Source: Candidatus Cloacimonadales bacterium (GTDB lineage: Bacteria > Cloacimonadota > Cloacimonadia > Cloacimonadales > JAFGVF01). Taken from it: 64,000 bases of DNA. Each line of letters starts with the position of its first letter. Position 1 is the stretch's first letter. The DNA lies in assembly GCA_963677495.2 (NCBI GenBank), contig CAXXOU010000004.1, positions 384,001 through 448,000 of the forward strand, in the 5' to 3' direction. Under the pieces are notes generated by a model. The model saw nothing but the letters and a program-made list of their open reading frames with translations. It did no database searches and was not told where the DNA came from. Positions 2,557 to 56,302 of the stretch are shown here, piece after piece. The translations under genes and the position numbers were made by a program.

Positions 2557-2623
2557 TATGGACTTAAATGGACACTGTCAGTTAGCTTGTCCACTTAAGT
2601 CCACTATCATCCACTAAGTCCAT
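2557..2623. repeat. Phased inverted array, ~10-bp period (TGGAC / GTCCA cores)
   Basis: ATGGAC at 2558, 2568; GTCCAC/ATCCAC/GTCCAT at 2589, 2599, 2609, 2618. Confidence 0.75.
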
Positions 2624-2736
2624 GTATTTTTACTACTTTAAATCATGATGGGGAAGCACACAAAGTCCACATTGCTCATATTGATCCAATATTGACATCA
2701 TTCATCTCATTTCGTCCATGACTATGATTTGCCCCC

Positions 2737-2858
2737 CATTAAAAACATGGAACCAGTTAGGACCCACCAAGGAGCCACCAAGGACCCTCCTTGGCGAAGG
2801 TCAAAGTTATCCACACTATGTGTATAACTTCAGTCACGTGTGAAGTAAGTTTTTAATG
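2737..2858. repeat. Composite element 1: outer 10-bp IR + 11-bp phased (C/T)AAGGA array + inverted DnaA-box pair
   Basis: CATTAAAAAC 2737-2746 / GTTTTTAATG 2849-2858; GG cores at 2749, 2760, 2771, 2782; inverted TCCTTGG at 2788. Confidence 0.75.
2804..2830. promoter_or_regulatory. Head-to-head DnaA-box pair, 3-bp spacer
   Basis: TTATCCACA 2807-2815 (perfect box), CTA, TGTGTATAA 2819-2827 (= TTATACACA on minus). Confidence 0.7.
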
Positions 2859-3111
2859 AAGAGCTGTAATAGGGCAATATGATGACACAGAATTTGGAGG
2901 GTATGGTGGCGAGTATAAGATTTGCAGTAATTGGACAATAGAAACAATTACTACAGCAAATAATAACATTGGACAAATTTCACCTCATAGATTATGAATA
3001 GCGACAAATATAACAGTAATACTATCAAATAAAATTATTCAAAAAGTACTTGACGTTTAAACTTGAGTTCATTAAATCAGTAATGTTCTCTCGAACATTG
3101 GAGGTAATATT

Positions 3112-4167
3112 ATGAAAAAAGTATTGTTATGTATTGTCTTGTTCACATTCGTAAGTATGGTCGGATTGTTTGCCTATTCTGAAAATGAAAGCAATAATAC
3201 TCCAGCATCTGCAGATATGATACCTCGGGGGACACTAGCAAATGTAGTTTTATTCTCAGGGAACATTAACCAAGCAGGTGATGTTGATTGGGTAGGAATA
3301 CCATTGAATGATACGAATAATTGTACTATAGATTTTGTATCATTTGGGTCAGCAAATACTAGTGTTGATTTCTATTCAGATGTGCCACCTACAACAGTCG
3401 AAGGTACAGCAACAACAAGTTCCTCTTATACTTCTGCTGAAGTAAATCAAGGAGATGTTCATTATTACATCAGAATCTATGGTACAGCAGCAACTTATCC
3501 ATCCAGTTATCTGATTAGGATAACTAATGAAGATGATAATACTTTCTTAACTCCTGTAACTCTGTCATCATTTATGGCTGTATATACCAATAATGAAGTT
3601 GGAATTACCTGGGTAACCCAATCAGAGTCAAATCTTGCCGGATACAATGTAATACGGAGTGATTCACAAGATATGACAAAAGGTTTAAACGTAAATGGGG
3701 CTATAATCTATGCTCACAATAGTTCATCAATAACAACATACAATTTTAAAGATGAAGAGATTGAAGCTGGAGGCTCATACTATTATTGGCTTGAAGTAGT
3801 AGAGATTGATGGTGGAATTGATTATCACGGACCTGTAAATGTAGAGATAACAGAGGATGATCATGAAGAGGAGACACCTGACTTAGTATACAGAACCGGA
3901 ATAGTCAGTAGTTATCCAAATCCATTCTCACACAATATCGACTTGCAGGTTGAGATGTCAAAGCTAACTGCAATTGAGCTCTCAGTATATAACATTAAAG
4001 GTGAAAAAGTTGATGTCATTCATAATGGCGAACTAACAGAAGGTACTCACACCTTTAACTGGGATGGAAAAGATGTTCATGGCAGAAGTATAGCCAATGG
4101 TATCTATTTCTTCAGATTAGATAGTTATGAGGGTTCATACACTCGCAAAGTAACCTTCATAAAGTAG
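3112..4167 (+). CDS. Secreted protein with FlgD/T9SS-like C-terminal sorting domain
   Basis: GGAGG RBS, signal peptide, PVTLSSF motif, SYPNPFS...YNIKGEKV...WDGKD...GIYF C-terminus. Confidence 0.85.
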   Translation: MKKVLLCIVLFTFVSMVGLFAYSENESNNTPASADMIPRGTLANVVLFSGNINQAGDVDWVGIPLNDTNNCTIDFVSFGSANTSVDFYSDVPPTTVEGTATTSSSYTSAEVNQGDVHYYIRIYGTAATYPSSYLIRITNEDDNTFLTPVTLSSFMAVYTNNEVGITWVTQSESNLAGYNVIRSDSQDMTKGLNVNGAIIYAHNSSSITTYNFKDEEIEAGGSYYYWLEVVEIDGGIDYHGPVNVEITEDDHEEETPDLVYRTGIVSSYPNPFSHNIDLQVEMSKLTAIELSVYNIKGEKVDVIHNGELTEGTHTFNWDGKDVHGRSIANGIYFFRLDSYEGSYTRKVTFIK

Positions 4168-4182
4168 TAACGATTAAGAGAG

Positions 4183-4219
4183 AACGAAAGGGGTGCTTTA
4201 ACAGTATCCCTTTTCGTTT
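4183..4219 (+). terminator. Intrinsic terminator
   Basis: AACGAAAGGGGTGCT / AGTATCCCTTTTCGTT hairpin after stop. Confidence 0.65.
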
Positions 4220-4364
4220 AGCAATTTAAGACTAGGTAGGTAGGCCAAGTACATTACTTACAGATATACAACCACTTGAAAGAATCGTAATAGAAAGTTA
4301 AGGATTATTTAAAAATTCTTATTGACAAGAACAGGACGATTGGAAACTTTAATCTCACATGTGA

Positions 4365-4440
4365 GCGGGAGTAGCTCAGCTGGTAGAGCGCCACCTTGCC
4401 AAGGTGGTTGTCGCGGGTTCGAATCCCGTCTCCCGCTCCA
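4365..4440 (+). tRNA. tRNA-Gly(GCC)
   Basis: Cloverleaf, anticodon loop TTGCCAA, TTCGAAT, encoded CCA. Confidence 0.97.
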
Positions 4441-4448
4441 ATGTAGAA

Positions 4449-4522
4449 GGCGACATCGCCAAGTGGTAAGGCAGAGGTCTGCAAAATCTCCATCCCCGGT
4501 TCGAATCCGGGTGTCGCCTCCA
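4449..4522 (+). tRNA. tRNA-Cys(GCA)
   Basis: GGCGACA/TGTCGCC acceptor, anticodon loop CTGCAAA, CCA. Confidence 0.96.
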
Positions 4523-4541
4523 CAGAATGTTAAAAAATAGT

Positions 4542-4629
4542 GCCGGAGTGGTGGAATTGGTAGACACAAGGGACTTAAAATCCCTCGAGATTCTATCTCG
4601 TGCCGGTTCAAGTCCGGCCTCTGGTACCA
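4542..4629 (+). tRNA. tRNA-Leu(TAA)
   Basis: Anticodon loop CTTAAAA, long variable arm, TTCAAGT, CCA. Confidence 0.96.
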
Positions 4630-4642
4630 ATAATAAAATCGA

Positions 4643-4718
4643 GCGGGAGTAGCTCAGCTGGTAGAGCGCCACCTTGCCAAGGTGGTTGTCGCGGGTTCGA
4701 ATCCCGTCTCCCGCTCCA
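4643..4718 (+). tRNA. tRNA-Gly(GCC), identical second copy
   Basis: Identical to 4365-4440. Confidence 0.97.
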
Positions 4719-4787
4719 TTTTTATCTCAGCACTAATCTTTAATTCTACTCAAATCAATCCAATCTCCCAAAACTTCATAGAATTCC

Positions 4788-4816
4788 TTGACACTCTCTA
4801 CCTTTTGGTTGATAAT
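4788..4816 (+). promoter_or_regulatory. Sigma70-like promoter of the UGPase-MCE operon
   Basis: TTGACA-17bp-GATAAT. Confidence 0.55.
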
Positions 4817-4846
4817 TTCACTTAAATAAGATTACCAGAGGTAAGT

Positions 4847-6241
4847 ATGGATAAAGTTAAACTATTTATGCAGAAAATGGAAAGGGAACAGCTTGGCAAT
4901 GAAGTGGTTGAAACCTTTACTCAATATTTTAACAGTTTCGTTGCTGGTGATAGGGGTTTGTTAACCAATAAAACTATTTCAGCTCCAGAAGAGGGAGATG
5001 TGATTGACTTCATAACTTTGACCGAGAAAAAAAGCGAATACTTATCCAAACTTGCTATCTGTAAACTAAACGGTGGACTCGGAACTTCAATGGGTTTGAC
5101 TAAAGCAAAATCATTGCTCCCTGTGTTCAATACAAATGAAGGTGAAGAGCTTACCTTTCTTGATGTTACATTGAAGCAACTCGAGAGTTTAAGAAAAAAC
5201 GGTAGTTCAACTACATTCCTTTTGATGAATAGTTACAACACGGATGCAGATACAAAAGAAGCAATCTCTAAATACAATTGGTTAGATGAACAGAAGTTAG
5301 ATACATGTTTCATCCAGAATAAATATCCACGCATTAGAAAAGATGATTTTACACCATTAAACCTTGAAGATGAAGGAGCTAACTGGAATCCACCCGGACA
5401 TGGTGACATCTATACTGCACTTTCTGCTACCGGAATTCTTGATAAGCTGATAGCTGAAGGTATTGAGTACTTGTTTGTTTCAAATTCAGATAATCTTGGA
5501 GCAACTCCAGATATAAAGATATTAACTTATCTAATTGATAATAGTATCCCATTCTTGATGGAAGTATGCAGACGTACTGAGATGGATAAGAAAGGGGGAC
5601 ATTTAGCTAGAAGTAATACTGGTAACTTAGTTCTAAGAGAAGTTACTCAATGTCCTGAAGATGAGATTGGGGAGTTTCAGAATATAAACTTATACTCATT
5701 CTTCAACACAAACAGTTTATGGATTAATCTAAAAAGTTTGAAGCAGTTTATGATTGATAACGATGGAAAAATGAAACTACCATTAATTGTTAACCCGAAG
5801 AGTGTTGAAGGGGTTGATGTAATCCAACTTGAAACTGCTATGGGTGCAGCTATAAGTGTCTTTAATGGTGCTAAAGCTCTGGAAGTTCCACGTAGTAGAT
5901 TTATTCCTGTAAAGAAAACTAATGAACTACTTCTTCTATGGAGCGGGGTTTATATATTAAATGAACACTATGAAGTAGAACTCGCTTCTAAGTTCCGAAA
6001 AGCACCCATAATCCATTTAGATCAGAAATATTATAAAACGGTTGATGCATTAAGAGAGAAGATATGGAAACATAAGCCTGATATGAGTCGCTGTAGGTCA
6101 CTTCATATTGATGGAGATGTGTATATTGGAGAGAATATAGCATTTATAGGTGATGTGAGCATAAACGGCTGTGATAATAAGTATGTGATAAACAATCGAA
6201 GATTGGAAGGATTGACACTCTGTCATCCGGAGATGTTTTAG
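4847..6241 (+). CDS. UTP--glucose-1-phosphate uridylyltransferase, eukaryote-type UDPGP family
   Basis: KLNGGLGTSMG..KAKS, WNPPGHGD, SNSDNLGA, QLETAMGAAI, VPRSRFIPVK. Confidence 0.92.
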   Translation: MDKVKLFMQKMEREQLGNEVVETFTQYFNSFVAGDRGLLTNKTISAPEEGDVIDFITLTEKKSEYLSKLAICKLNGGLGTSMGLTKAKSLLPVFNTNEGEELTFLDVTLKQLESLRKNGSSTTFLLMNSYNTDADTKEAISKYNWLDEQKLDTCFIQNKYPRIRKDDFTPLNLEDEGANWNPPGHGDIYTALSATGILDKLIAEGIEYLFVSNSDNLGATPDIKILTYLIDNSIPFLMEVCRRTEMDKKGGHLARSNTGNLVLREVTQCPEDEIGEFQNINLYSFFNTNSLWINLKSLKQFMIDNDGKMKLPLIVNPKSVEGVDVIQLETAMGAAISVFNGAKALEVPRSRFIPVKKTNELLLLWSGVYILNEHYEVELASKFRKAPIIHLDQKYYKTVDALREKIWKHKPDMSRCRSLHIDGDVYIGENIAFIGDVSINGCDNKYVINNRRLEGLTLCHPEMF

Positions 6242-7026: not shown

Positions 7027-7036
7027 AGGACAGTTT

Positions 7037-7909: not shown

Positions 7910-7912
7910 AAT

Positions 7913-10033: not shown

Positions 10034-10034
10034 T

Positions 10035-14639: not shown

Positions 14640-14917
14640 CTTTATCTCCTTTATGTATCATCAATTTTTTCGCTTCACATATAATAATATGCAAGATATA
14701 TTCCAAGAAATAATAAAAGATTTCTATCCATATATCTCTTCTTACAAGACAATAATTATACAACTTACCAATTTTGGCAATAACTTTTTTCCAATTCAGC
14801 CAATTTTATTTTCTAAGCTAACCAAATACTCTATCGATTGAGCCAAGTTATTGTGCCTTAGTAGTATTACATTTTGTGGTTTATCAAGATTAGTTCGCAC
14901 TTTCTATACTCAAATCA

Positions 14918-15265
14918 ACAAAACGCAGTCATCCCACTGTTTTCCCACTGTGCACCCACTGTGCACCCACTGAAACAGTGGGTTGACAGTGCCTTCACAG
15001 TGCAGACACAGTGCAGGCACAGTGCGTTGATGGATAGAGTAGTTAAAGAGTGCAAAAAGGGCATTAAGTATAGCTAAGTAATTGTAAAATGCACTGTGTA
15101 TGTTTTTCTGGAGCTGTCGCAATAGCGACCGGAGGGAGATGGCGAATAGCGGAAATGGTGAATGTACATCACTATGAGTCAAATTCCCTTCGGTCGCTAT
15201 GACTCCAATGATGTAAGTCATTGCAAATTGCACTGCGTATCATATTTAGAATCAGTTACCACTTC
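14918..15265. repeat. ~345-bp dispersed repeat, copy A (11-bp CACTG/CAGTG array + REP-like hairpins)
   Basis: CACTG at 14935/46/57/68, CAGTG at 14976/87/98, 15009/20; aligns end-to-end with the reverse complement of 23244-23590. Confidence 0.9.
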
Positions 15266-15381
15266 AGAACTGTAAAGAGTTTATAGTTCTAACCATTTTT
15301 GAGTATTTCAGAGGTATGAAAGAATAAAATTTTTGTTAATTTGAGGATTGACCTTGACACAGAAAGAGTGATATATATTTA

Positions 15382-15395
15382 TACACTATAGTGTA
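15382..15395. promoter_or_regulatory. Perfect 14-bp palindrome, candidate PadR operator
   Basis: TACACTATAGTGTA between TTGACA (15354) and the PadR start. Confidence 0.5.
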
Positions 15396-20327: not shown

Positions 20328-20616
20328 TGTGTTCTCCTTGATTAGTTATATTTTTATGTCCTAATAATATCGCCAATACTTATAATATACCATAAATCCT
20401 AATGTCAAGCAAAATCTCTTTTGATTATTACTGTGAGAGCTAAGATTATTTTCTTCACTTTTCTGTCAATCTAACACTGTAATGATCTTATCTGGTAAAG
20501 TTACTAACCAAAACAAACCAATATAATGCTAAATTCATTTAAGATGTTATACCATTTTATGCGAGATTGAACATGTCTTTTTTTCTATGAAATGTGGCAT
20601 ACCAATGGCATTCTTG

Positions 20617-20699
20617 ACAACGGGTTGACCACGGGTAATCCACGGGTTGACCACGGCTTCTGTGGTTTGGGCGTGGATTACCCGTGGTTCAGCCGTGGT
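20617..20699. repeat. 11-bp phased inverted array (CCACGG / CCGTGG)
   Basis: ACGG at 20620/31/42/53; (C/T)GTGG at 20661/72/83/94; centre CCACGG-CTT-CTGTGG. Confidence 0.9.
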
Positions 20700-20780
20700 T
20701 AGATAACACATTCATGACAGTCTTGGCTCAGAGAAAATAGTTTCAATTGACATTTAATATGCCTAAATAAGTATGATTCC

Positions 20781-23253: not shown

Positions 23254-23590
23254 TGCTACATAATTACATACACAGTGCGATTACCAATAACTTACAACGT
23301 TGGAGTCATAACGAGTTTACGAGTTGGACTCATAGCGTTGTACCTTTGCCACTTTTCGCTATTCGCCCATCTCCCTTTGGTCGCTATTGCTACAGCTTCA
23401 GTTTACTCACACAGTGTCATTTGCAATAACTTAGCTACATTTCTTGCCCTTTTTACTCTCTTTCACTGCTCTATCCATCAACGCACTGTGCACGCACTGT
23501 GATACCACTGTGAAGGCACTGCCAACCCACTGTTTCACTGGGTGCACAGTGCGTGCACAGTGGGAAAACAGTGGGATGACTGCGTTTTGG
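23244..23590. repeat. ~345-bp dispersed repeat, copy B (inverted relative to copy A)
   Basis: Reverse complement matches 14918-15265 including the 11-bp array. Confidence 0.9.
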
Positions 23591-23737
23591 TTTATGGATT
23601 GCATCAACTGCGTAGATGTAACAGACTATCTTTGCGATGTATGTCCGAGTTTAAATCATTTGACATAAAAATAATAGCTGGTAATAATCGTTCCTAGATC
23701 TTTAAACGTGATGCTTTCACAACTAACTTAGGAGGAT

Positions 23738-34310: not shown

Positions 34311-34348
34311 TTTAAATGCAATTCATTTATCCGTTTTTTCCAAAATTG

Positions 34349-34522
34349 CCCTGCTTCTTCCCTTCCAGTTCCCTGACATGGAAAGGTGTTTCAAAGGTTT
34401 CCCACAGGTGACCCTCTCGTGACCCTCTCGTGGAATGCCATAAGTTATTCACATCGTGTGGATAACTTGAATATTTATGGAAAACCTTCATTAGTCAGGG
34501 AACCGGAAGGGGGGGAGACAGG
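34349..34522. repeat. Composite element 2: outer IR + 11-bp phased arrays + inverted DnaA-box pair
   Basis: CCCT at 34349/60/71; GT-core at 34386/97, 34408/19/30; TTATTCACA-TCG-TGTGGATAA 34445-34465; IR 34360-34377 / 34494-34511 (1 mismatch). Confidence 0.8.
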
Positions 34523-34664
34523 CACAAATCAATTTCAATCAAAACCGGGTAGGTTTACCTTGGTATCATTTAGAAGTTCCTAATTCATAATTAGTAATTC
34601 TATTCGTAACTCATCATTAACACAAAACTTAAGAAGTAGAATGAAAATAGTTGCAATTTTTTAT

Positions 34665-39269: not shown

Positions 39270-39545
39270 TATGGATTTAACCGACGATGTCGGTCAAAAT
39301 GTGGAGTTAACCGACTGCGTCGGTTTGTCTTGTAATAGATAGTTTATTGGCAAAAATTAGTTTCATTATGCTTTCTGAAGGTTACATTGGCAGTTGCATC
39401 TACATAGTATATGCAGTCCAAAATATGGAATTAACCGACAATGTCGGTTTGTCCTGTGGCTCTTGGTTTAATGGCTAATTTTGTTTCATTATGCTTTCTG
39501 AAGGTTCCATTGCAGTTGCATCTACATAGTATATGCAGTCCAAAA
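39270..39545. repeat. Tandem ~124-bp REPIN units (TGGAGT-led palindromes)
   Basis: Units at ~39301 and ~39425; TAACCGAC-N3-GTCGGT and GCATCTAC-ATA-GTATATGC-AGTCCA; extra half at 39272. Confidence 0.85.
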
Positions 39546-39549: not shown

Positions 39550-39940
39550 TAACCCTGAAAGGGTTACCTATGAGTAGCACCGAATACAATTCGGGGTTTA
39601 GGAATACAGATTTATCCTAACCCCAACGGGGTTAAATTTGTTCAAGATTATGTTATGGCATATTCGACCCCGTTGGGGTCGCTGGCTCTTATGGGACATC
39701 CGACCATGCATTGCATGGCTACTCACATGCTATCCCTCTGGGATAAGCAAAGAGGACAGCAATAATGCTACCCTCATTTAACATAATCTCATACTTCAAG
39801 AAATGTGGGATAATGGCTTCAATGTTTATTAGCTGACTTATGTTATAGCATTTTATCCTGAAGGGATAACCTAATAATAGCCATGGTGCTTTAGCTCATG
39901 GATAAGATTTGATTTCCAAATCCCGACCCTGAAGGGGTCG
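39550..39940. repeat. Multi-hairpin REP-like elements (AACCC..GGGTT / CGACCCC..GGGGTCG type)
   Basis: Hairpins at ~39551, 39619, 39665, 39731, 39854, 39924; TGAGTAGC/GCTACTCA inverted linker. Confidence 0.75.
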
Positions 39941-40182: not shown

Positions 40183-40332
40183 TTCCCCAGAACCACCAGA
40201 TTCATCTGGTGGCTTTGAACCATGTTTAAGCTTAATCCCCTCCCTCTTCGCTTTCCTAATGAAAGCGTAGAGGGAGGGGAGGAAAATAGTTTTAGAGTAC
40301 CTCCACCACTTGAAAGTGGTGGTTCTGGGGAA
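40183..40332. repeat. Nested inverted repeat (CCACC REP pair enclosing a CCCCTCCCTCT hairpin)
   Basis: TTCCCCAGAACCACCA 40183 / TGGTGGTTCTGGGGAA ending 40332; inner hairpin 40237-40279. Confidence 0.8.
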
Positions 40333-40373
40333 GCCAATATCCTATAGCCACTAAATATTACTACTCAATCGCT

Positions 40374-40503
40374 CCCTTTCAATTCCAACTCGACACTTAC
40401 TTCTCACTTACTAGACACTTACTACTCTCTTACTCAAACCAGTAAGTTAGACACAAGTTGTTGATAACTAACTAGATTTTGAATAGTATTTATTGAATGG
40501 GAG
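40374..40503. repeat. Composite element 3: outer IR + 11-bp CTTACT array + degenerate DnaA-box pair
   Basis: CTTACT at 40396, 40407/18/29; AGTAAG 40441; TTAGACACA-AGT-TGTTGATAA 40447-40467; CTCCCTTTCAA / TTGAATGGGAG flanks. Confidence 0.7.
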
Positions 40504-40561
40504 GAGAAAGAGGGAAGAAGTATTATCTCCCCATTCTTTCCTTAATCTCTCAGCAGTAATC

Positions 40562-40667
40562 GCTGGTAAACACTTGGCCAACCCTTGCCCAACACTTGGT
40601 CAATCCTTGGCCTATTTACCAAGAATATACCATTTTATAACCAAGCTGTTACCATTTTAAAGCCACT
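40562..40667. repeat. 11-bp phased inverted array (CTTGG / CCAAG)
   Basis: Left cores at 40562/73/84/95, 40606; right CCA cores at 40619/30/41/52/63. Confidence 0.85.
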
Positions 40668-41050
40668 AATTATTCGAGAAAGTAGAAGGGGCAGGGAGTG
40701 AGATTAGATTAATGTTTGAGTAGGTTAAAAAGGTCAGGGAGGCTGTAGGATAAATGCATTGACTAAATAATATATCTTTTACAAATTATAATTAACCGTA
40801 TGAAAAAATGAGATGATATAGGTTGAATTGACCAATGAAACGAGTAAACGATAGTTCCTTATCAAACTATGGAATGTCATCAATAGTGTAACCCCCTTAT
40901 GCTTATTTATGAAGAGTTTTTTAATGAATAAAGAGGAGTGTTGGGATGAGTCTTTTTTCTTAATGTAAATTACTATCGTTAGACGAGGTATTTATAAAAA
41001 AGTTTGTATTATCAAGTAGGCACAAACAATATGATGGTTGACTATATCAT

Positions 41051-41307: not shown

Positions 41308-41578
41308 GAGTTCCTCCAGATTGTTTAGTGTAACTATAATATATTGAGTTAAAATAGTATTGCAAGAAAAAGAATAGTCACAATCAAAATAATAGAAAAG
41401 AGATGCTTGTTCATAATAGGCTTATTTGCATAGATATATTTACATTAGCAGGTTTACTGACCTACATGAAAAGATACAAAGAATTAGTTGACATACTTAA
41501 ATTATCTACAAGGATGGCGTTAAAGATTTCTGTGTTAAATAGATAGATTTGATTTCCATAATAACTTTGGAGAGTGAA

Positions 41579-44500
41579 ATGGTAAAACCTAATTGGGATA
41601 ATTTTAAAGCAAAATTTAGTGAAAATCCTCAAAACAATTTCGAATGGTTATGTTACTTGCTATTCTGCAAGGAATTTAATCAAGAACTAGGCATTTTTCG
41701 ATATAAAAATCAATCCAGGATAGAAACTAATCCTATTATAATAGATAACGATGTGATAGGATGGCAAGCAAAATTTTATGAATCTTCTCTTTCAAGACAT
41801 TCTGATGAACTGCTAAAAATTGTTGAAAAAGTAAGAGATGACTATCCTAATATTACTAAGTTATACATTTATAGTAATGAAGAATGGGGGCAAGGGAGGA
41901 AAAAGGGAAGTAAACCAAAAGGTTTAAAAGCGATAGAAAAATTAGCCACAGAAAAGAAAATAAGTATAGTATGGAAGACTGCTAGTTTTTTTGAATCAGA
42001 ATTTGTTACTACAAGTAATGCAGTTATAGTAAAGCACTTCTTTACTTTCGATCGAAGTATTGTTACTCTAATGAATGAATTGAAAGAACATACTGAGTGT
42101 ATTTTAAATCTCATTCAATCAGAGTTTTGCTTAAACGACAAGAAATTTGAGATAAATAGGGATGCGTATGTTGAAGAACTAAACAATGAAGAAAAACCCG
42201 TTTCAATCTTGAGTGGTTCAGGAGGAGTAGGTAAAACGGTAATAGTTAAGAAATTGTATAGGAGACTGAGAAATAATATACCATTTTATGTTTTCAAAGC
42301 TACGGAATTTGAACTAAGTAATATCGATAAAATATTTACGGAATTCAGTTTCTATGAATTTACAGAAGGGCTTCGAGAGCAAAAAGATAAAATAATTGTT
42401 ATTGATTCTGCAGAAAAACTGCTAAACTTAAACAATACTGACCCTTTTAAAGAGTTCTTATCCATTCTTTTGAAAGATAGATGGAGAATAATTTTTACTA
42501 CAAGAAATAACTATTTAGAAGACCTAAACTACCAATTCTTTGAAATCTATAAGATAGCACCAACAAATATCACGATTCAAAAATTAGAATTAGGAGAACT
42601 TTTCGAAATTGCAGAAGTGTATGATTTCTTAATACCTAATGATGAAAAATTGATAGAGTTAATTAGAATTCCATTTTATCTAAACGAATATATTTCATTA
42701 TATGATGATGATTCAAAAGAGTTAAAATATGTCGAATTCAAGAATAGAATATGGAAAAAGAGTATTAAAAAATCACAACCTAACAGAGAAGTTTGTTTTC
42801 TGCAGATTGCATTAGAAAGAGCTAATAGTGGGCAATTCTTTCTTAACCCCGATTGTAATACAAATACTCTAGCAGACTTTACAAAAGATGGTGTATTGGG
42901 TTACGAAGAGGCAGGTTACTTTATTTCTCATGATATCTATGAAGAATGGGCTCTTGAAAGAATAATTGAAAGGGAGTTTAAAATAAAGGATTCAGATTTG
43001 ACTTTCTTTAATAGAATAGGTCACTCTCTCCCAATGAGAAGGAGTTTTAGAAACTGGTTATCAGAGGGATTGCTTTTAAATAGAAACGATATCAGAATCT
43101 TTATTGATGAATTAATTAAGAATCAGGAAGTTGAAGCATTTTGGAAAGATGAAACTTTTGTATCAATTCTTCTGTCAGACCATTCAGAAACATTTTTTGA
43201 TAACTTTCAAGATGAATTGTTAGAAGATGGATGTTTGTTATTAAAAAAGATTACCTTCATTTTGAGAATTGCTTGCAAAGAAGTTGATAACAATTTTTAT
43301 GCACAAATTGGTTTGAAGTATTTCAATCAACTAACTTTAAAACACATTCTAACAAAACCCAAGGGACAAGGTTGGGAAAGCACTATTGAGTTCGCTTATG
43401 TGAATTTGGAATCAATTGGTTTTGGGCAAATTTCTTTCCTAATCCCCATATTGGTTGAATGGAACAGGAAAATAGGAAAAGGAAAAACAACAAGGTTAGC
43501 AGGTCTAATAGCACTCAGGTTTTATCAATGGATTATGGGAAACGATGTCTTGTATTATTACAAAGATAGAGTAAAAGAGTTAATTTCGATTATTCTTCTA
43601 GGTTCTGTAGAGTTGAAATCTGAGTTAGAGCCAATTTTTCAAAGTATAATAGAAAATAAATGGAAGAGTTATGGTGATCCATATTATGGATTTTCACTTA
43701 CAATACTCACAGAAATGATAGGATATACTATAACAAAAGCTATGCCAGAATGTGTTATGAAGCTAGCCTATCTATTTTGGTCTAAAGATGTTCAAGAAGA
43801 CGATAGTTTGTATCATTCTGCCATGGAGAGTGAACATCATTTTGGAATCGAAAAGGTGGGTAATGGATATTCCCCAGCAAGTGCTTTTCAAACCCCTGTT
43901 TACTGGTTGTTAAATACTAGACTAAAAGAGACATTAGATTTTATTCTAGAATTTACTAACAAATCTATAGAAGAATATGCTTCATCCGGATATGATCATA
44001 GTGTTTATCAAGTAGATGTGCATATTGATGATAGTATTAAGATTGAACAATACTCAAGTCATTGTCTTTGGAATATGTATAGAGGTTCGGGCTCACCTGT
44101 TTGCCCTTATCTACTACAATCTATACATATGGCATTGGAGAAGTATTTTTTAAATACTGGCAAGATTAAAGACTCACAAGAGCTTGAGTCTTGGTTAATA
44201 TACCTTTTGAAGAACTCGAAATCCGCTTCTATCACTTCTGTAATTACAAGTGTTGTTTTAGCTTTCCCAGAAAAAACATTTAATGTTGCAAAAATTCTGT
44301 TTAGGACAAGAGATTTTATTAGGGAAGATACACTTAGAATTGTTTTTGAGTCTGACGCAAAATCATTATATTCTTTTAGTAAGGAGCTCGGATTTAAAAA
44401 TACTGAAGTATATGATGATGAAAGGATAAAAACATGTGAAGATAAGCATCGCCAGTTTTGCTTGGAACACATTTTTCTGCAATATCAGTGGTTTAAGAGC

Positions 44501-46300
44501 GAGGAAATCAGTGATGAAGAAGTTAAAGAAAGACAAGAAGAATTATGGCGAATTTTAGATGAATATTATTCTGAATTATCTTCTGAATCTGAACAGACTG
44601 ATGATGATAGAACATGGAGATTGTTTTTAGCTAGAATGGATAGAAGAGGGATGAAGGTTGAAACAGAAGAAACAGATAATGGAATAGCAATACAGTTTAT
44701 TCCTAATGTTACACCTGACATTAAAGAGCAGAGTGACAAAGCGGTAACAAAACACAATGAACAAACAAAGTATTTCTCATTATTAATGTGGTCGAAGCAG
44801 AGATATGATTATAATGAGCAATACAAACAATATAAAAAATATGAAGAGGAACCCAAACTTGCGCTATTTGAAGCAAAAGAGATATATGAAAAAATAGCCA
44901 CTAATAATGAAACTATTATGAATTCAGGAGATGAAGACTTCCTCTTGTTTCATCATTCAATCCCTGCTTATGTTTGTAGTGTGTTATTACGAGAGTTTCT
45001 TGATTTGCTAACAGATGAGGATAAAGCACTGTGTTCAGAGATATTGATGTCTAAAGCGGTGTCAGCTCTAAATCCAAAATATAGCTATCAAATGTCTGAT
45101 GGTGTTCAAGCAGCGATATCTGCATTACCAATTCTTTTTAAAATAGTCCCAGAAGAAAAAGGATCAATAAAATTTGTTTTGTTGATGTGTCTTTTCTTTA
45201 ACCATACAATTGATCAAATAAATAAGTTCAGCATTTTCTCTATCATGGCGATCAAAGAAATGTGGAAGGATAATGCCTTAGATGCTTACTCAATATTTCT
45301 TGGTTACATTTACTTAAGACCTAAGTATGAAGACCTAAGTGAGGGATATCGCTCAGAGAGAAATCACATGATCAATTTTCGCTTTAATGACCGGGCTCCA
45401 GCAAAAGAGTTTATCGAAAACCATGAAGAAGAAATTAATGCGATAATTGATAATACAATTACTCTGAGAAGCTTAGAAGACCTAAGATCTTTAGATGTAA
45501 TTATGTTAGAAATCTTATTCAAAATGATACCTACTAAAATTGATGAATCGGAGCTTAAAGAAATTACCTTGTATGTTGTTAAGACTATATTTCATAATCT
45601 CTTAGATAATGGAGATGATGATAAAGTAAAAAGTATAAAGTATAGCTTTCTTAGGTTTTATGCCAATTTTATATTAAATATACCTGAGACTGAAATAGTG
45701 GACTATTTAGCACCTGTACTAAGCAGCTTCAGACTCTCAGAGTTATTTGCAGATTTGTTAAAAGATATTGTACTTGCTGAAGATAGGCTGAATACATATG
45801 ATAATTTTTGGTTTATTTGGGAAACAGTCCAACCACAATTGATTGAATTAAGTAATAACTCTGACAATTCTTGGTACCGGGATAGCATTATAAAAAGCTA
45901 TCTATTTGCGAATATCCCTTGGAAGGAAACAGCCCAAGACTGGCGTTCATTTAAAGATGAGAACGCTAATTTCTTTGCAGAGATTTCAGAAGAAATTGGA
46001 CACTGCCCCTCAGTTTTGTATGCTATATCGAAATTGTTAAATGATATTGGGAGCCCATATTTAGATAAAGGTGTATTTTGGATTAATACGATTCTTAGAA
46101 ATAACCCAGGTTACAGTGATAAGAAGTTAGAAGTAAATACGATTTATTATATAGAGAATGCTATGCGTAAGTATGTGTTTAAACATAAAGAGGAGATCAA
46201 AAAGAAAAAGATTCTCAGAAACAAGCTTATACTGATAATGAATTTTCTGGTTAGTCAGAATTCAGAAATCGGTTATATGCTAAGAGAATCCATAATTTAG
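41579..46300 (+). CDS. avs4: AVAST type 4 anti-phage STAND ATPase/nuclease Avs4
   Basis: N-terminus MVKPNWDNFKAKFSENPQNNFEW matches my recollection of Avs4; Mrr-like GWQAKFY; Walker A GSGGVGKT, Walker B VIDSAE; long helical C-terminus; 1573 aa from ATG 41579. Confidence 0.88.
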   Translation: MVKPNWDNFKAKFSENPQNNFEWLCYLLFCKEFNQELGIFRYKNQSRIETNPIIIDNDVIGWQAKFYESSLSRHSDELLKIVEKVRDDYPNITKLYIYSNEEWGQGRKKGSKPKGLKAIEKLATEKKISIVWKTASFFESEFVTTSNAVIVKHFFTFDRSIVTLMNELKEHTECILNLIQSEFCLNDKKFEINRDAYVEELNNEEKPVSILSGSGGVGKTVIVKKLYRRLRNNIPFYVFKATEFELSNIDKIFTEFSFYEFTEGLREQKDKIIVIDSAEKLLNLNNTDPFKEFLSILLKDRWRIIFTTRNNYLEDLNYQFFEIYKIAPTNITIQKLELGELFEIAEVYDFLIPNDEKLIELIRIPFYLNEYISLYDDDSKELKYVEFKNRIWKKSIKKSQPNREVCFLQIALERANSGQFFLNPDCNTNTLADFTKDGVLGYEEAGYFISHDIYEEWALERIIEREFKIKDSDLTFFNRIGHSLPMRRSFRNWLSEGLLLNRNDIRIFIDELIKNQEVEAFWKDETFVSILLSDHSETFFDNFQDELLEDGCLLLKKITFILRIACKEVDNNFYAQIGLKYFNQLTLKHILTKPKGQGWESTIEFAYVNLESIGFGQISFLIPILVEWNRKIGKGKTTRLAGLIALRFYQWIMGNDVLYYYKDRVKELISIILLGSVELKSELEPIFQSIIENKWKSYGDPYYGFSLTILTEMIGYTITKAMPECVMKLAYLFWSKDVQEDDSLYHSAMESEHHFGIEKVGNGYSPASAFQTPVYWLLNTRLKETLDFILEFTNKSIEEYASSGYDHSVYQVDVHIDDSIKIEQYSSHCLWNMYRGSGSPVCPYLLQSIHMALEKYFLNTGKIKDSQELESWLIYLLKNSKSASITSVITSVVLAFPEKTFNVAKILFRTRDFIREDTLRIVFESDAKSLYSFSKELGFKNTEVYDDERIKTCEDKHRQFCLEHIFLQYQWFKSEEISDEEVKERQEELWRILDEYYSELSSESEQTDDDRTWRLFLARMDRRGMKVETEETDNGIAIQFIPNVTPDIKEQSDKAVTKHNEQTKYFSLLMWSKQRYDYNEQYKQYKKYEEEPKLALFEAKEIYEKIATNNETIMNSGDEDFLLFHHSIPAYVCSVLLREFLDLLTDEDKALCSEILMSKAVSALNPKYSYQMSDGVQAAISALPILFKIVPEEKGSIKFVLLMCLFFNHTIDQINKFSIFSIMAIKEMWKDNALDAYSIFLGYIYLRPKYEDLSEGYRSERNHMINFRFNDRAPAKEFIENHEEEINAIIDNTITLRSLEDLRSLDVIMLEILFKMIPTKIDESELKEITLYVVKTIFHNLLDNGDDDKVKSIKYSFLRFYANFILNIPETEIVDYLAPVLSSFRLSELFADLLKDIVLAEDRLNTYDNFWFIWETVQPQLIELSNNSDNSWYRDSIIKSYLFANIPWKETAQDWRSFKDENANFFAEISEEIGHCPSVLYAISKLLNDIGSPYLDKGVFWINTILRNNPGYSDKKLEVNTIYYIENAMRKYVFKHKEEIKKKKILRNKLILIMNFLVSQNSEIGYMLRESII

Positions 46301-51005: not shown

Positions 51006-51050
51006 ACAGATAACTTAGTGGTTAGTATTAGTTCCATAATTCCATAACTT

Positions 51051-51112
51051 CCAATCTACACCCAATCCAATTCCCGTTATCATTAACGTGTTTCTAACTG
51101 GAAGCTAACGGG
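51051..51112. repeat. Short 11-bp phased inverted array (CCCGTTA / TAACnnG)
   Basis: TAAC at 51084/95, 51106; CCCGTTA at 51073, CC in phase at 51051/62. Confidence 0.5.
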
Positions 51113-51255
51113 TAACAGATAAGTAGTAAGAAGATGTATTGAAAACGAATCATGGGCTTGGCGCGCAGACATCTTTGTCCGTGTATTGTCCTGAAAAAAA
51201 GCCACAGATTTCTCGGATTATCTCAGGCAAGAGTATTTCGACATTGCATGTCGAA

Positions 51256-51307
51256 TTCGTAGGACACGCTGCCAGCTTGTCCACTTAGCGGAGCTAAGTA
51301 GCTCCAC
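51256..51307. repeat. GTAG-led REP-like element, copy of 30798-30848
   Basis: TTCGTAGGACAC.CTGCCAGCT.GTC...TTAGCGGAGCTAAG. Confidence 0.75.
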
Positions 51308-51487
51308 TGACGGTAACTGGTGTTAATTGGTTAAGTTCTTTGGAGAACATTATCAGGTTCTGGTGACAGCTACGAATGCACCGTTGCTGCATTCCATATA
51401 GAAAAAAGTAAATATATTGACATGAATTCATACTTCGTTGATAAATAGATATTAGAATTAAATATAACAGGTGCATAAGGTTGTCTG

Positions 51488-53671
51488 ATGGAAAACTTAC
51501 AAGAGAAAGCATTACAAGTACTGAATGACATTTTTGGTTATAAAGAGTTTAGAAAGTATCAGTTGAATATAATTGAGAGCTTAGTACAGGGGCAGAATAG
51601 TGTAGTCATCATGCCGACAGGTAGCGGAAAGTCACTTTGCTACCAGATACCTGCACTTATGCAGAATGGAACTGCGATTGTTATCTCACCTTTAATCTCT
51701 TTGATGAAGAACCAAGTTAATCAGTTGCAGCAGTTTGGAGTTGATGCTGCATATTTAAACAGTTCGCTTTCTCGGGATGAGTATTTTGACACTATTGGTA
51801 AGGTGAAATCTAATAAAGTAAAACTCCTCTATTTAGCTCCTGAGACTTTGATGTTACCTCAGACCTTTAACCTTTTGAATCAACTTAAAATCTCTTTAAT
51901 AGCTGTTGATGAAGCACATTGTATCTCGGAATGGGGACATGACTTCAGACCTGAATACAGGCAGATTGCTGAACTACGAGCTAAGCTTAATAACCCTCCT
52001 ACAATAGCCTTAACAGCTACTGCAACTCCATTGGTACAAGAAGATATATCCAAGAACCTTAGTTTGGATAAGTACTCCCTCTTTAAAACCAGCTTTGATA
52101 GACCAAACCTGTTCATTGAAGTGAAGATGAAGACTGATGCTGTTATGCAAGTAGTAGAAACACTGGAAAGGTTTAAGAATCAATCTGTGATTATTTATTG
52201 CTTCTCCCGTAGGGGAGTTGATCAACTTGCTGAGAAGCTACACAAAATGGGATTCAAAGTTCTACCTTATCATGCAGGATTGGATAGTGTGACCCGGAAA
52301 CATAATCAGGAAAGATTCATTAATGATGATGTTGATATTATTGTGGCAACAATTGCCTTTGGGATGGGAATCGATAAACCTGATGTGAGATGTGTTATAC
52401 ATTATGACCTACCGAAAGATGTGGAAAGCTACTATCAGCAGATAGGACGTGCCGGTCGTGATGGGGAAGATGCATATTGTCTTTTACTGTTTTCGTATGG
52501 TGATCCGGCAAAGATAAAGTTTCTCTTTCAAGACAAAGAGGAGCGTGAGAAGATTGTTGCTTATAATCACCTGGAAGCGATGGTAAACTTTGTTGAGGAC
52601 GAGGCTTGCAGACGCTCCTTTATCCTTTCCTATTTCGGTGAGGAGCATGAAGAGCAGAACTGTGGGACTTGTGATAACTGCGTGAAGGATGTGAAACCAA
52701 AAGAGGACTTGACTGTTATTGTTCAGAAGTTTCTCTCATGTGTTTATAGGACAAATCAGATGTTTGGTGCAAATCATATTGCAAAGATACTTAGGGGCTC
52801 GAAGGATAAGAAGATTATTGGTAGAGGGCATGACCAGCTATCTACTTATGGAATTGGTGTAGATCAATCATTAAAGCAATGGATGTTTGTGTATCGACAA
52901 CTCCTAAGAACAAAGGTTATTGTTTTAGATGAGCAATATGGAAGTATAAAGCTTACTGACAAAGCTAAAGAGATTTTGCAGAATAAAGAAACGTTTATGG
53001 GTCATCTGATAGAGGAAAAGGTTAAATACAAATCTAAAGCTGATATTACTGATTATAATGTTGAGTTGTTTGAACTATTGAGAGCAAAGAGAAAAGAACT
53101 GGCGGACGAGAAAGAGATTCCACCATATACAATCTTCCACGATAAGACAATCAAAGAGTTGTCGGCATTGTATCCCCAAACTGAAGCACAGTTGCTACAG
53201 ATTAGCGGAATCGGTAAGGCAAAGCTGGATAACTATGGTAGTATCTTACTCGACATTATTGTTCCGTTCTGTACTAAGAATAATCTGCAACCCAAGGTGC
53301 AATCAACACATCTTAACCTGCGAGAAGTAGAAATGGTTAGAGCATCAGGTAAAGGAGCAAGAGCTAAAGCAGCATCCAAAATGTTCAATGATGGTTACTC
53401 GATAGAAGATATTCAGAAAGAGTATGGTGTCAAGCGAACTACAGTGTTTGGTTATTTTCAAGACTATCTGTTGGAAGGGAATGTTCTAACTCAATCTTTA
53501 GAAAGCTATTTAGAAGTAAGTCATGAGGATTGTGTGAGAGCTTACGAGATGTTTCGAGAGATGGAGATACTAAGACTCAGGCCTGTGTATGACCTGTTTG
53601 GGGGTAAATATACATATGACCAGCTAAGAATATGTGCATTGATTTTTAATAATGAACTGAACAAGGTGTAG
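51488..53671 (+). CDS. recQ: ATP-dependent DNA helicase RecQ
   Basis: MPTGSGKSLCYQ, DEAHCISEWGHDFRPEY, AFGMGIDK, GRAGRDG, Zn/RQC, HRDC. Confidence 0.96.
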   Translation: MENLQEKALQVLNDIFGYKEFRKYQLNIIESLVQGQNSVVIMPTGSGKSLCYQIPALMQNGTAIVISPLISLMKNQVNQLQQFGVDAAYLNSSLSRDEYFDTIGKVKSNKVKLLYLAPETLMLPQTFNLLNQLKISLIAVDEAHCISEWGHDFRPEYRQIAELRAKLNNPPTIALTATATPLVQEDISKNLSLDKYSLFKTSFDRPNLFIEVKMKTDAVMQVVETLERFKNQSVIIYCFSRRGVDQLAEKLHKMGFKVLPYHAGLDSVTRKHNQERFINDDVDIIVATIAFGMGIDKPDVRCVIHYDLPKDVESYYQQIGRAGRDGEDAYCLLLFSYGDPAKIKFLFQDKEEREKIVAYNHLEAMVNFVEDEACRRSFILSYFGEEHEEQNCGTCDNCVKDVKPKEDLTVIVQKFLSCVYRTNQMFGANHIAKILRGSKDKKIIGRGHDQLSTYGIGVDQSLKQWMFVYRQLLRTKVIVLDEQYGSIKLTDKAKEILQNKETFMGHLIEEKVKYKSKADITDYNVELFELLRAKRKELADEKEIPPYTIFHDKTIKELSALYPQTEAQLLQISGIGKAKLDNYGSILLDIIVPFCTKNNLQPKVQSTHLNLREVEMVRASGKGARAKAASKMFNDGYSIEDIQKEYGVKRTTVFGYFQDYLLEGNVLTQSLESYLEVSHEDCVRAYEMFREMEILRLRPVYDLFGGKYTYDQLRICALIFNNELNKV

Positions 53672-53686
53672 TCAATTTTGGAAAGA

Positions 53687-53720
53687 AACAGCCTAATTCA
53701 TAATAATAAATTAGGCTGTT
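53687..53720. terminator. Hairpin between convergent genes, probable bidirectional terminator
   Basis: AACAGCCTAATT / AATTAGGCTGTT. Confidence 0.6.
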
Positions 53721-53731
53721 CTATTATTAAT

Positions 53732-54340
53732 TTACTTCCACCACTCCTTTTCAGGAGTGAAGGGGTTGTCTTCTTTTCTACGTAGTTCTACCCAGTCTTG
53801 AATTTGCTTAACAGTTTTGCATAGGCTGTTCTTGCTTGTGTCAAACACTTCAACATTCCATCTTGGGTCGTCATTGGTAATAGAAGTCCACCTTTCATGA
53901 TGATAGTCACCCGGATTTCTATTGATAACTATTCTTTGCTCCCATTCCGGTTCTTTAGCATGCATTCGATGATATGCAGCCCAACAGAGAGTATCCATTA
54001 TTAAGGACCACTCTTCGAACATAGGTCTGTTACGGTATCTTTTTACTCTGATATAGTCATGACAATCCAGTAAGCAAGCTGAGATCCCATTAAACTGAAT
54101 TGCTTCATTACTACCAAGCAACTGCCCGAATGGCATGTGTGAGGTGAGAAGGAAATCTTTACCCTCTTTCTGGCATTCTAAAGCTCTGTCAAACCAACTT
54201 TTGAATCTTTCGTAAGCGTATTGTTCTTCGTACTTAATCTCATCTTCGCAATGACACTCAACATTTGCTAGTGCTTCTTGTAGATGAGGTACAATACTTG
54301 ATTTTCCTGAAGCAGCAGCTCCTGATATTAAGAAAAACAT
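53732..54340 (-). CDS. P-loop kinase-like hypothetical protein
   Basis: AGGAG RBS before ATG 54340; ISGAAASGKS Walker A. Confidence 0.7.
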   Translation of the reverse strand: MFFLISGAAASGKSSIVPHLQEALANVECHCEDEIKYEEQYAYERFKSWFDRALECQKEGKDFLLTSHMPFGQLLGSNEAIQFNGISACLLDCHDYIRVKRYRNRPMFEEWSLIMDTLCWAAYHRMHAKEPEWEQRIVINRNPGDYHHERWTSITNDDPRWNVEVFDTSKNSLCKTVKQIQDWVELRRKEDNPFTPEKEWWK

Positions 54341-54568
54341 GGTAACTCCTTTGTACGTTATGTACATGTAATGTATTTTGGAGTTCTGTTCATAAAAGAG
54401 CCAGAGCGTATAAAAACGGTAATCCAATTGTGATTTAATAATGTGAAAATAGTTTATAGTGTCAAGAATAATGTCAACGGGTTAGTGCTATAATAGAATA
54501 CTTAACTTTATTTATTTGACAACATCTTTGAGTATATGCAAGTTTATTATAATTGTTTAGGAGGGGAT

Positions 54569-55321
54569 ATGTGTGATTTTAGAAAACATTACATTGAATA
54601 TCTTGGAATCAACTCGGATGACTTTGAAGAGGGTGCAAGGATCTTTTATAAAGAGATAAGAAATATGGCTTATCCGGGGTATTTCTTTTACAATATGATT
54701 ATTTCATCTTATAAAGCACAAACTGTAATTACTATCCATCCTGAGTTTTCAAAGAGATTTACTTCAGAGGAATTGGTCAGTTTGCTAAAACTTGATAGAG
54801 AGGATATTCTACAATACCTAAGAAACAAGTTTAATGACTTACAAAAAGGAGCCTTTGTTAGTAGAATGTATCGTTATAGTGTTACAAGTGATGAGCTAAT
54901 GAGGTCAATAGATAAAGAAGCTGTTCTATTTACTAAACAGATGAAACCATTCTTTTATAAAAGATTTGAGAAGGCAGGTAAAGAGATTGCAGACTATCAT
55001 TGGAAAGAATCTCAGATTCTTTTTGAAAAGAAACGTTCATTCATTTGCTGCTCTGACGTGGAGTACTTCTCAATGAGTCATATCACAAATATTATTGATA
55101 ATGGTGGTAACATTGCAGTAGGTACTAATAGTCGCTACAGGGTGCGTGGATATGGAAAAGCTACTGTTATTAAAGCAGTAGAATGGTGTTTCAAGAATTC
55201 TGTTGTTCCTGTCTATTTAGTTGATTCAGCAAATGAACCCTCTATTAAACTTGCAGAATCTTTAGGTATGACAAGAAAGGCAGATGAGATTGTTGTAGGC
55301 TCAGAAAGGTTTGGGTATTAA
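54569..55321 (+). CDS. GNAT family acetyltransferase
   Basis: GGAGG RBS; YRVRGYGKA, NEPSIKLAESLG. Confidence 0.8.
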   Translation: MCDFRKHYIEYLGINSDDFEEGARIFYKEIRNMAYPGYFFYNMIISSYKAQTVITIHPEFSKRFTSEELVSLLKLDREDILQYLRNKFNDLQKGAFVSRMYRYSVTSDELMRSIDKEAVLFTKQMKPFFYKRFEKAGKEIADYHWKESQILFEKKRSFICCSDVEYFSMSHITNIIDNGGNIAVGTNSRYRVRGYGKATVIKAVEWCFKNSVVPVYLVDSANEPSIKLAESLGMTRKADEIVVGSERFGY

Positions 55322-55323
55322 AG

Positions 55324-56166
55324 CTAAGCCTGCTTTCTCCATCTGGCACAAGTTCCGGCTGGAAGATCATTACCATGCTCTGATTCTATCGCTAGTGTGA
55401 ATGTATCGATACTTCCTTTCTTAAGCTTTTGCATACTATTCAGCAGAGTTCTAAGCTCTGAAACACCAAACTCTTGATCATGACATGATAGGATGAAGAA
55501 ATCAGGGTTTGTACTAAGAACTTTCTCAACGAGTTTTATTAGTTTAGGCATATCTTTCCCAATCTTCCAAATCCCACCTTTCTTACTACGCCCAAAGGCC
55601 GGTGGATCGAGGATGATACCGTCATATCTGTTACCACGCTTACCTTCACGCTTCAAGAAGGTTAGTATATCCTCGGTTATCCATCTAATCTTATTATCTT
55701 GCTTGTTGGAAACAATTGAGTTTTCTCGAGCCCAATTTACGCTACTTGAGGCAGCATCAATATGAGTGACTTCAGACATTGAGGAAGAGGAAGCAATGCT
55801 CATTGCACCTGTATAAGCAAAGCCATTCAATATTGACAAATTATTAGCAGATTTGCTAACAATATCTTCAACCCATTGCCAATTTGTCATTTGCTCAGGA
55901 AATACTCCAATCTGACCATTTGCAGATAATCGCGTCTGAATCTTTACAGCACTAAAGACAAAAACAGGTAGTTCTTTTTCGCTTTTCACAATCCATTCAG
56001 ATGACAATGCATCAAATCTAGCATTAAAATTATTCCAGATCTCTTTATCCAGTTTTCGTTGCCAATTGGCTTGAGGTGCTGATCGTCGGAATATATAATC
56101 CCCAACCTGCTCAAGCTTCTCAAAGTCTCCGCAATCAAGTAGTTTATAGTTTGTTTCCTTAGTCAT
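55324..56166 (-). CDS. Class I SAM-dependent methyltransferase (RlmI/RlmK-like)
   Basis: YKLLDCGDFEKLE, GVFPEQ, LNGFAYTG, ILDPPAFG. Confidence 0.87.
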   Translation of the reverse strand: MTKETNYKLLDCGDFEKLEQVGDYIFRRSAPQANWQRKLDKEIWNNFNARFDALSSEWIVKSEKELPVFVFSAVKIQTRLSANGQIGVFPEQMTNWQWVEDIVSKSANNLSILNGFAYTGAMSIASSSSMSEVTHIDAASSSVNWARENSIVSNKQDNKIRWITEDILTFLKREGKRGNRYDGIILDPPAFGRSKKGGIWKIGKDMPKLIKLVEKVLSTNPDFFILSCHDQEFGVSELRTLLNSMQKLKKGSIDTFTLAIESEHGNDLPAGTCARWRKQA

Positions 56167-56230
56167 GACTAAGTAGAAATTTTTGCTGGCTTATTTGTAA
56201 AGGGAAAAAACTATATCTTCACATGCTTAA

Positions 56231-56302
56231 CTCTAACCCCTCCCTTGGGTTTCCCTTGCAAGCCAAGGGAAGGGCAAGGGAAACCCAAGAGTAAAATAAG
56301 AG
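56231..56302. repeat. 11-bp phased inverted array (CCCTTG / CAAGGG)
   Basis: CCCTT at 56242/53 (degenerate 56231); (C/T)AAG at 56264/75/86/97. Confidence 0.8.

Follow-up and report, generated by a model that had tools for sequence, protein, structure and literature searches.

What accounts for intergenic DNA elements that share one geometry and differ in sequence? The question is raised by a 64,000-nucleotide stretch of the genome of a Candidatus Cloacimonadales bacterium (GCA_963677495.2, contig CAXXOU010000004.1, positions 384,001 to 448,000; hereafter, the window), in which a preliminary description had placed nine arrays of short cores spaced by 11 nt together with complementary cores. 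All nine are indeed present. We find that they are solo copies of dispersed repeat families and that, elsewhere in the same genome, copies of such families lie upstream of paralogous genes for a protein of about 150 amino acids (aa). These observations point to an undescribed system in Cloacimonadota that consists of a repeat and a partner protein, with a similar arrangement in Bacteroidota.

Abundance of 11-bp arrays in non-coding DNA

The genome that contains the window (G000; 3.41 Mb, 37% GC; the window is G000:C4:384001-448000), which the taxa of its homologous proteins place in Cloacimonadota, was compared with three congeners (G001, G002 and G003), so that four genomes of one genus were covered. 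In the non-coding DNA of G000, 5-mer autocorrelation peaks at lag 11, with 10.45 per 1000, and amounts to 6.24 at lag 22, with 1.45-3.66 per 1000 at the remaining lags from 5 to 16; in coding DNA, the value at lag 11 is 1.36 per 1000. Genome-wide, there are 124 inverted arrays at lag 11 versus 0-5 at lags 7-16. The 1,045 intergenic gaps hold 120 inverted lag-11 arrays versus 0-1 in eight dinucleotide shuffles, an excess over composition-matched shuffles that the preliminary description had anticipated, and a strict detector applied to the window alone returned five inverted arrays versus none in 200 shuffles. As a background, an 11-bp array was detected in 1 of 108 long gaps at distant-phylum loci found via an aspartyl-tRNA synthetase (AspRS) scan.

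The arrays of the window sit between ordinary genes, and the only Rfam families matched in the window at the gathering score were 6 tRNAs. The array site at 20609-20706 is spanned without differences by one contig in each of four runs from one sample, and the reads of one sample showed no empty-site joint. In the excerpts considered here, a period of 11 bp is often explained by the helical pitch of DNA under negative supercoiling (PMC4132750), a view questioned in PMC7537859. A second periodic class in the non-coding DNA of G000 consists of 7-bp arrays, with an autocorrelation peak at lag 7.

Dispersal and turnover of the array families

Clustering and profile search of G000 yielded 338 copies in about 15 families (F0, F1 and so on), 48 kb in total, none of them inside an open reading frame (ORF) of 200 aa or more. 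The nine window arrays represent eight of these families, each dispersed at 5-68 copies. The preliminary description held that each locus has a core of its own, that the geometry is independent at each locus and that the linkers vary freely. Instead, every array belongs to a dispersed repeat family (those at 14933 and 23483 are members of the same family in opposite orientation), and the centre of the array, central linkers included, is near-invariant within a family, with variation limited to the periphery. The copies are non-identical, no pair among the 68 of F0 exceeding 94.5% identity. Indels preserve the 11-bp phase: among 54 array-internal indels, 26 are at least 3 bp long and 18 of these 26 measure 11, 22 or 33 bp. 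Linkers have been swapped among units and arms. The inverted geometry described originally is confirmed for the nine arrays but does not extend in full to several families, namely those of the copies at 2721, 34340, 40369 and 51048, in which just one arm is well formed.

Thirty syntenic gaps were compared with the congeners: 22 are empty on both sides, and in 8 the G000 gap alone contains an element. The 8 elements correspond to 6 distinct loci, all 6 vacant in the congeners, in the manner of the empty orthologous sites of miniature inverted-repeat transposable elements (MITEs). The CACTG family is present in all three congeners and in none of 27 other relatives. In the ten families analysed for target-site duplication, the substrings common to the two ends do not exceed in cis the length found in trans, with the qualification that array ends are fuzzy and very short duplications could escape detection; in-cis complementarity between the flanks of array copies was not found either. 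The gene-less copies are dispersed repeats with mobile-element-like dynamics. Replichore bias is confined to F0 (45:23) and F2 (12:29), by a crude skew call.

G000 also encodes 14 Y1_Tnp matches, and these loci are flanked by repeats other than 11-bp arrays. RAYT genes were excluded as the cognate partner because their flanks hold different repeats. Some array families occur fused to RAYT-type repeats, and repeats of the RAYT-flank type occupy about 290 loci in the genome.

A gene family downstream of the arrays

The candidate partner was picked by tallying array neighbours per paralog cluster in G000. The genome holds 22 paralogs of the ~150-aa protein, 11 of which adjoin an array and in each case lie downstream of it; for none of the 22 is there an element within 700 bp downstream. 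In the protein tree, two clades that comprise 8 of the 22 paralogs lack family arrays (one of the 8 is flagged by a looser detector), and each of the remaining 14 has an array 128-1140 bp upstream. As many as 11 families, including rare ones, are represented at these 14 genes, a diversity that insertion at random is unlikely to produce (P about 0.005; post hoc, 13 draws). In addition, a truncated paralog copy has an F10 array 91 bp upstream.

Array type and paralog clade are inherited together. Each of the families F0, F1, F3 and F8 stays with its protein clade across species, and a locus in G001 (L166) bears an F11-like array. When the presence of DnaA boxes in the array (see below) is mapped on the protein tree, where it labels 12 of 40 rows, the label changes 5 times versus about 10.5 times after shuffling, with none of 500 shuffles as low. 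In G000 and in G002, one pair each of recent duplicates was found, and in both pairs the similarity begins at the outer end of the array, covers the leader and the gene, and stops at the stop codon or shortly after. Thus, the array and the gene are one unit and are duplicated as such. The anatomy is that of a one-gene cassette, in which the phased array is followed by a predicted promoter and leader, the ~150-aa gene and, usually, a putative terminator; read by eye, the arrays commonly end shortly upstream of a sigma-70-like promoter.

Many of the 150-aa loci carry a further motif just before the gene, in which two words of 7-9 nt, separated by about 21 bp, precede TATA...AGAGG (for example, at G000:C4:58625, 297146 on C3 and 1447705, and at L144 and L143). 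The words differ in sequence by paralog and keep a constant geometry; the motif was found upstream at 27 of 96 loci versus 8 downstream, and 10 of its 29 non-coding genome matches precede paralogs.

The preliminary description proposed a search of related genomes for a co-occurring family of DNA-binding genes. Arrays lie upstream of ~150-aa homologs in the congeners as well as in G013 and G014, which belong to other families and in which, in the 200 kb sampled from each, the main dispersed cores recur upstream of homologs. In G024 and G031, which have no homolog, no array was detected in 100 kb each. Across Cloacimonadota homolog loci, arrays were found 20 times upstream versus 2 downstream in a set of 70 (a few of low complexity), 11 versus 2 in a set of 20, and, with a stricter detector, 15 versus 1 at 96 loci. 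The family was found in 96 of the 151 genomes of the phylum that were searched, at 1-25 copies each, so that many members lack a detectable array. The 7-bp arrays occur upstream 28 times and downstream 12 times at the 70 loci.

The 150-aa protein and DUF6266

The structure predicted for the protein (pLDDT 96) comprises three short strands followed by helices. Fold searches with two models, which barely covered residues 1-38, gave best Z scores of 4.5 and 3.8, with no Foldseek match at E<=0.001; ribbon-helix-helix chains matched only at Z 3-4, with rmsd 2.3-3.5 over about 45-50 residues. PDB sequence searches with the protein returned no match, no Y1 match was found in an array-linked 150-aa gene, and no longer or fused forms of the protein were found, which is weak evidence. 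Matches to HMG-box and Cox-like proteins, seen in 1-2 of 135 members, were taken as chance. Lys2, Gly14, Arg33, Tyr72, Leu109 and Leu136 are near-invariant. Most of the array-linked paralogs are basic, and acidic proteins form the main array-less clade (pI at least 7.8 in 13 of 14 array-linked paralogs and at most 5.8 in 7 of 8 array-less ones, values that are not independent).

The N-terminal 80 residues resemble clusters of DUF6266 (PF19781), an uncharacterised family of Bacteroidota (atlas 0.87). This likeness is a lead, not membership: PF19781 is absent among the 25 of 29 listed families for 135 members and has no match in G000 at E<=1. The two families have a similar N-terminal SGK-x-G...R motif. 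Gly14 and Arg33 are the sole near-invariant residues in common, which argues for a common binding module rather than a common active site, and no catalytic motif is common to both. The C-terminal part is helical in the 150-aa family, whereas that of DUF6266 is, by a weak match, fibronectin-like.

The genomic arrangement is also alike, in that DUF6266 is encoded in single-gene multicopy loci with upstream 11-bp arrays. Lag-11 arrays were detected upstream at 18 of 34 DUF6266 loci and downstream at none of 30, some of these rows being near relatives, and extra 9- and 10-bp arrays are present, often beside the promoter. Five further distant homologs, retrieved with a joint N-terminal profile, have arrays upstream in three cases versus none downstream. 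At the loci L283-L292 and L264, a conserved leader that extends from the promoter to the DUF6266 start is made of self-complementary hexamers. Two DUF6266 genes (L274 and L275) are located in virus-like or satellite-like settings with no 11-bp array; the neighbours of the former, as read by eye, include a small membrane protein and a small ORF that resembles tyrosine recombinases.

DnaA boxes inside the arrays

Four families (F3, F5, F7 and F11) embed two back-to-back DnaA boxes, with a 3-nt spacer in 68 of 69 pairs; three window copies bear such a DnaA-box-like pair, which the preliminary description overlooked. Of the 154 perfect TTATCCACA boxes of G000, 97 (63%) are in elements or within 40 bp of them. 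The box consensus in the elements is that of the cluster beside dnaA, the likely origin, and, given that DnaA binding follows from the box consensus, DnaA is expected to bind the element boxes. The box pair is present in 58, 53, 1 and 2 copies in the four congeners and in none of 37 other genomes. In the nearest gene-linked copies of the box-bearing families, the order is array, box pair, gene. With this share of the perfect boxes in the elements, a selfish repeat may be changing how the initiator is titrated. Other DnaA-box clusters, distant from dnaA and not part of the array families, are located at G000:C1:766199-766412 and at C4:1492840 and 1496977.

Array copies in the window

The first solo array of the window belongs to F11 (2721..2840, minus strand; 5 copies; core matched by the hidden Markov model at 2766-2815), a family with a gene-linked copy at G000:C4:693k, and includes a back-to-back DnaA-box pair with a 3-nt spacer (2807..2827, no strand). 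It is preceded by a degenerate GGAC/GTCC hairpin with some 11-nt spacing (2557..2626, no strand), which has 16-nt arms at 94%, is single-copy and has no further BLAST copy. F0 (CACTG; 68 copies) is represented twice, at 14902..15107 on the minus strand and, in the opposite orientation, at 23404..23606 on the plus strand. F2 (CCACG; 41 copies) occupies 20609..20706 on the plus strand, in a syntenic gap that is empty in G001, G002 and G003. The plus-strand F5 array (34340..34530; 24 copies) combines one phased arm with a DnaA-box pair at 34445-34465, and the F7 array (CTTAC; 40369..40507, plus strand; 12 copies) has a degenerate box pair. On the minus strand, there follow F1 (CTTGG; 40537..40689; 49 copies), a partial F4 array (CCGTT; 51048..51133; 29 copies, none of those found in G000 gene-linked) and F9 (CTTGC; 56210..56302; 10 copies).

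In G001, an F0 array and a 150-aa gene adjoin the orthologue of the right-hand flank of the array at 14902..15107. This site is a synteny break (window 14792-15383 versus G001:C1:779.3k and 851.7k), and 150-aa homologs border both of its flanks in G001. A full-length AVAST type 4 anti-phage nuclease, Avs4, is encoded at 41549-46300, with the F7 and F1 arrays ~0.9 kb upstream. Other repeats, comprising 123-bp tandem units and hairpins that match the flanks of RAYT genes, are located at 39302-39545, 39620-39679 and 40183-40332. Elsewhere in the genome, a tRNA-Sec gene is present at G000:C2:364622-364716.

Possible origin and function of the arrays

We give about an even chance to the interpretation that the arrays serve the cognate paralog as phased tracks for binding and that the gene-less copies are selfish dispersed repeats. 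The cognate protein would bind duplex DNA in a cooperative manner, with one unit every 11 bp along a single helix face, and, as ParR does at parC, would probably autoregulate its own promoter. Paralogs and cores would diverge in step, each protein reading its own word, and solo copies, such as the nine in the window, would be non-autonomous selfish derivatives that are kept or spread through cognate recognition; the logic would resemble that of REP/RAYT with another protein. The landing pad on one helix face envisaged in the preliminary description thus gains a candidate partner, the co-inherited ~150-aa gene family, along with phase-keeping indels; binding itself, like autoregulation and any role of the paralogs in mobility, is what we infer. 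A broader version, which we consider unlikely, is that these are selfish one-gene cassettes found across phyla, in which the small protein, of an undescribed fold, would polymerise on the array and itself drive array copying or homing, with orthogonal paralog-word pairs and with some families recruiting DnaA by way of their boxes, which would couple the process to replication. If protein-driven copying is true, this would be a mobile-repeat system that works without any known transposase, and its orthogonal pairs of protein and DNA filament would form a natural library.

Several observations weigh against the arrays being binding tracks. In G000, an element within 700 bp upstream is no more frequent at the paralogs (11 of 22) than at other genes whose gaps measure at least 400 bp (269 of 495); the 8 paralogs of the array-less clades have no family array, and none of the copies of F4 (29) and F15 (16) in G000 is gene-linked. 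With the stricter detector, the 28 best-hit loci of family f4 gave one array upstream and one downstream. The clustering of array types on the protein tree can reflect common descent of the cassette without binding. Given that 37 of the 68 F0 copies adjoin RAYT-flank repeats, another mobiliser may act, and the array copies show no target-site duplication. For the protein, searches of Pfam, PHROG, PDB and viral databases found no fold, family or catalytic motif, and HHalign links it weakly to DUF6266 (probability 43%, E 2.5e-4, 68 columns).

Some of these facts would fit an arrangement in which the arrays are operators of cognate small regulators that contribute nothing to the spread, and solo copies travel within mosaic repeats by means of RAYT/IS200 enzymes or recombination and are possibly co-opted as regulatory or nucleoid sites. 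Apart from the 14 Y1_Tnp matches, 31 of the 68 F0 copies have the R11/R12 RAYT-flank repeat on the same side, RAYT repeats occur in 115 of 271 gaps with elements versus 76 of 282 without, and the 150-aa and DUF6266 families share no catalytic motif. Nevertheless, RAYT neighbours are scarce at other families (F2, 5/41; F3, 6/39; F6, 3/24; F9, 0/10; F11, 0/5), and the RAYT genes themselves are flanked by repeats different from the 11-bp arrays, so we regard hitch-hiking operators as possible but rather unlikely. Neutral slippage, template switching and gene conversion in long intergenic junk that also houses the 150-aa genes would accommodate the filling of 54% of long upstream gaps by elements, the exchange of linkers among units and arms and the indels in 11-bp steps, which slippage produces too. 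It leaves unexplained, however, why unrelated cores in different phyla keep to a single period, as well as the confinement of arrays to the upstream side of DUF6266 genes, the invariant centres of the 68 non-identical F0 copies and the tracking of protein clades by array families, and appears highly improbable.

Alternatively, the unit could act as RNA or single-stranded DNA, in the form of a long hairpin in which each A-form turn contains one paired core and which the cognate protein would bind or cut. The folding of the plus strand of window copies (z from -1.1 to -9.9), the tight centres of 2-6 nt and the long stems formed by family consensuses are compatible with this possibility. Yet, F2 arms show no in-cis covariation (paired fraction 0.687 versus 0.686 permuted), paired sites show no strong wobble-type strand bias in any family (the largest is 13:26), many of the arrays in G013 and at DUF6266 loci consist of tandem repeats alone, and the arrays, as read by eye, frequently stop just upstream of the sigma-70-like promoter. 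An excess of GT in F2 (151 vs 37) was traced to inherited consensus positions, the counts for rare variants only being 41 vs 31. The lack of covariation and of strong wobble bias, together with the tandem-only homologous arrays, favours duplex recognition, and both the RNA-hairpin and the cruciform readings of the preliminary description lose ground accordingly; we deem a hairpin unit improbable. At E. coli oriC, low-affinity DnaA sites form 11-bp-phased arrays, and the arrays might likewise be DnaA filament tracks or DnaA-titrating sites. The concentration of perfect boxes in or beside the elements, the 3-nt spacer in all pairs but one and the origin-like consensus speak for this option; conversely, boxes are embedded in 4 families only, most cores are unlike boxes, and the pair, at 1-58 copies, occurs in just 4 of the 41 genomes, which belong to a single genus. 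An explanation by DnaA is the most doubtful of those considered here.

Comparison with known systems

For most short dispersed bacterial repeats, the partner or the means of spread is not known. Here, the array words can be paired one-to-one with the paralogs of the uncharacterised protein, so that a direct binding matrix is feasible in E. coli or in vitro, and a functional lead is offered for the first time for DUF6266 and for its counterpart in Cloacimonadota. No description of an array and partner system of this kind was found in the literature, subscription papers and supplements being outside the scope of the search.

The closest parallels are with REP/REPIN sequences and RAYT, with parC/ParR and with MITEs. 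As far as the excerpts considered here go, REP/RAYT systems likewise comprise several dispersed extragenic inverted-repeat families per genome, with non-identical copies and patchy copy numbers, and about one cognate gene per family: REPtrons have about one tnpA-REP gene per REP type (PMC6006769), and here, 11 families are found at 14 linked paralogs, with F10 in addition and with F4 and F15 unlinked. In contrast, the partner of the arrays is not an HUH/Y1 protein, the array is on the upstream side only, and the cores are 4-7 nt long at 11-bp phase, unlike the 20-40-nt palindromes with a GTAG-type guide; no such guide was seen by eye in the family consensuses, no formal scan having been made. 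Furthermore, duplication has involved the array and the gene jointly, in contrast to REPtrons, which, according to the excerpts of PMC3337134 and PMC6006769, do not transpose as a unit. In plasmid R1, according to the excerpts of PMC2241845, parC consists of two sets of about five 11-bp iterons by the promoter of the small binder ParR, which binds at about one dimer per iteron and is autoregulated. Both systems place 11-bp iterons next to the promoter that serves a small gene, but, in the same excerpts, parC is a single-copy plasmid locus with direct repeats that flank the promoter and with the ParM ATPase, whereas the arrays described here have inverted arms and are upstream, chromosomal and accompanied by hundreds of solo copies. 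No actin-like ATPase was found in the cassette, where hairpins or repeats are seen in the 200-nt downstream flanks and the recent duplicates end at the stop codon or shortly after it. With MITEs, the arrays share the short, non-coding, multicopy, hairpin-shaped form and the empty orthologous sites; unlike MITEs, they are without target-site duplication, have fuzzy and variable ends, and are conserved at the centre rather than at the termini. Thus, the arrays belong to none of these three classes; by analogy, their organisation is REP/RAYT-like and their geometry is parC/ParR-like.

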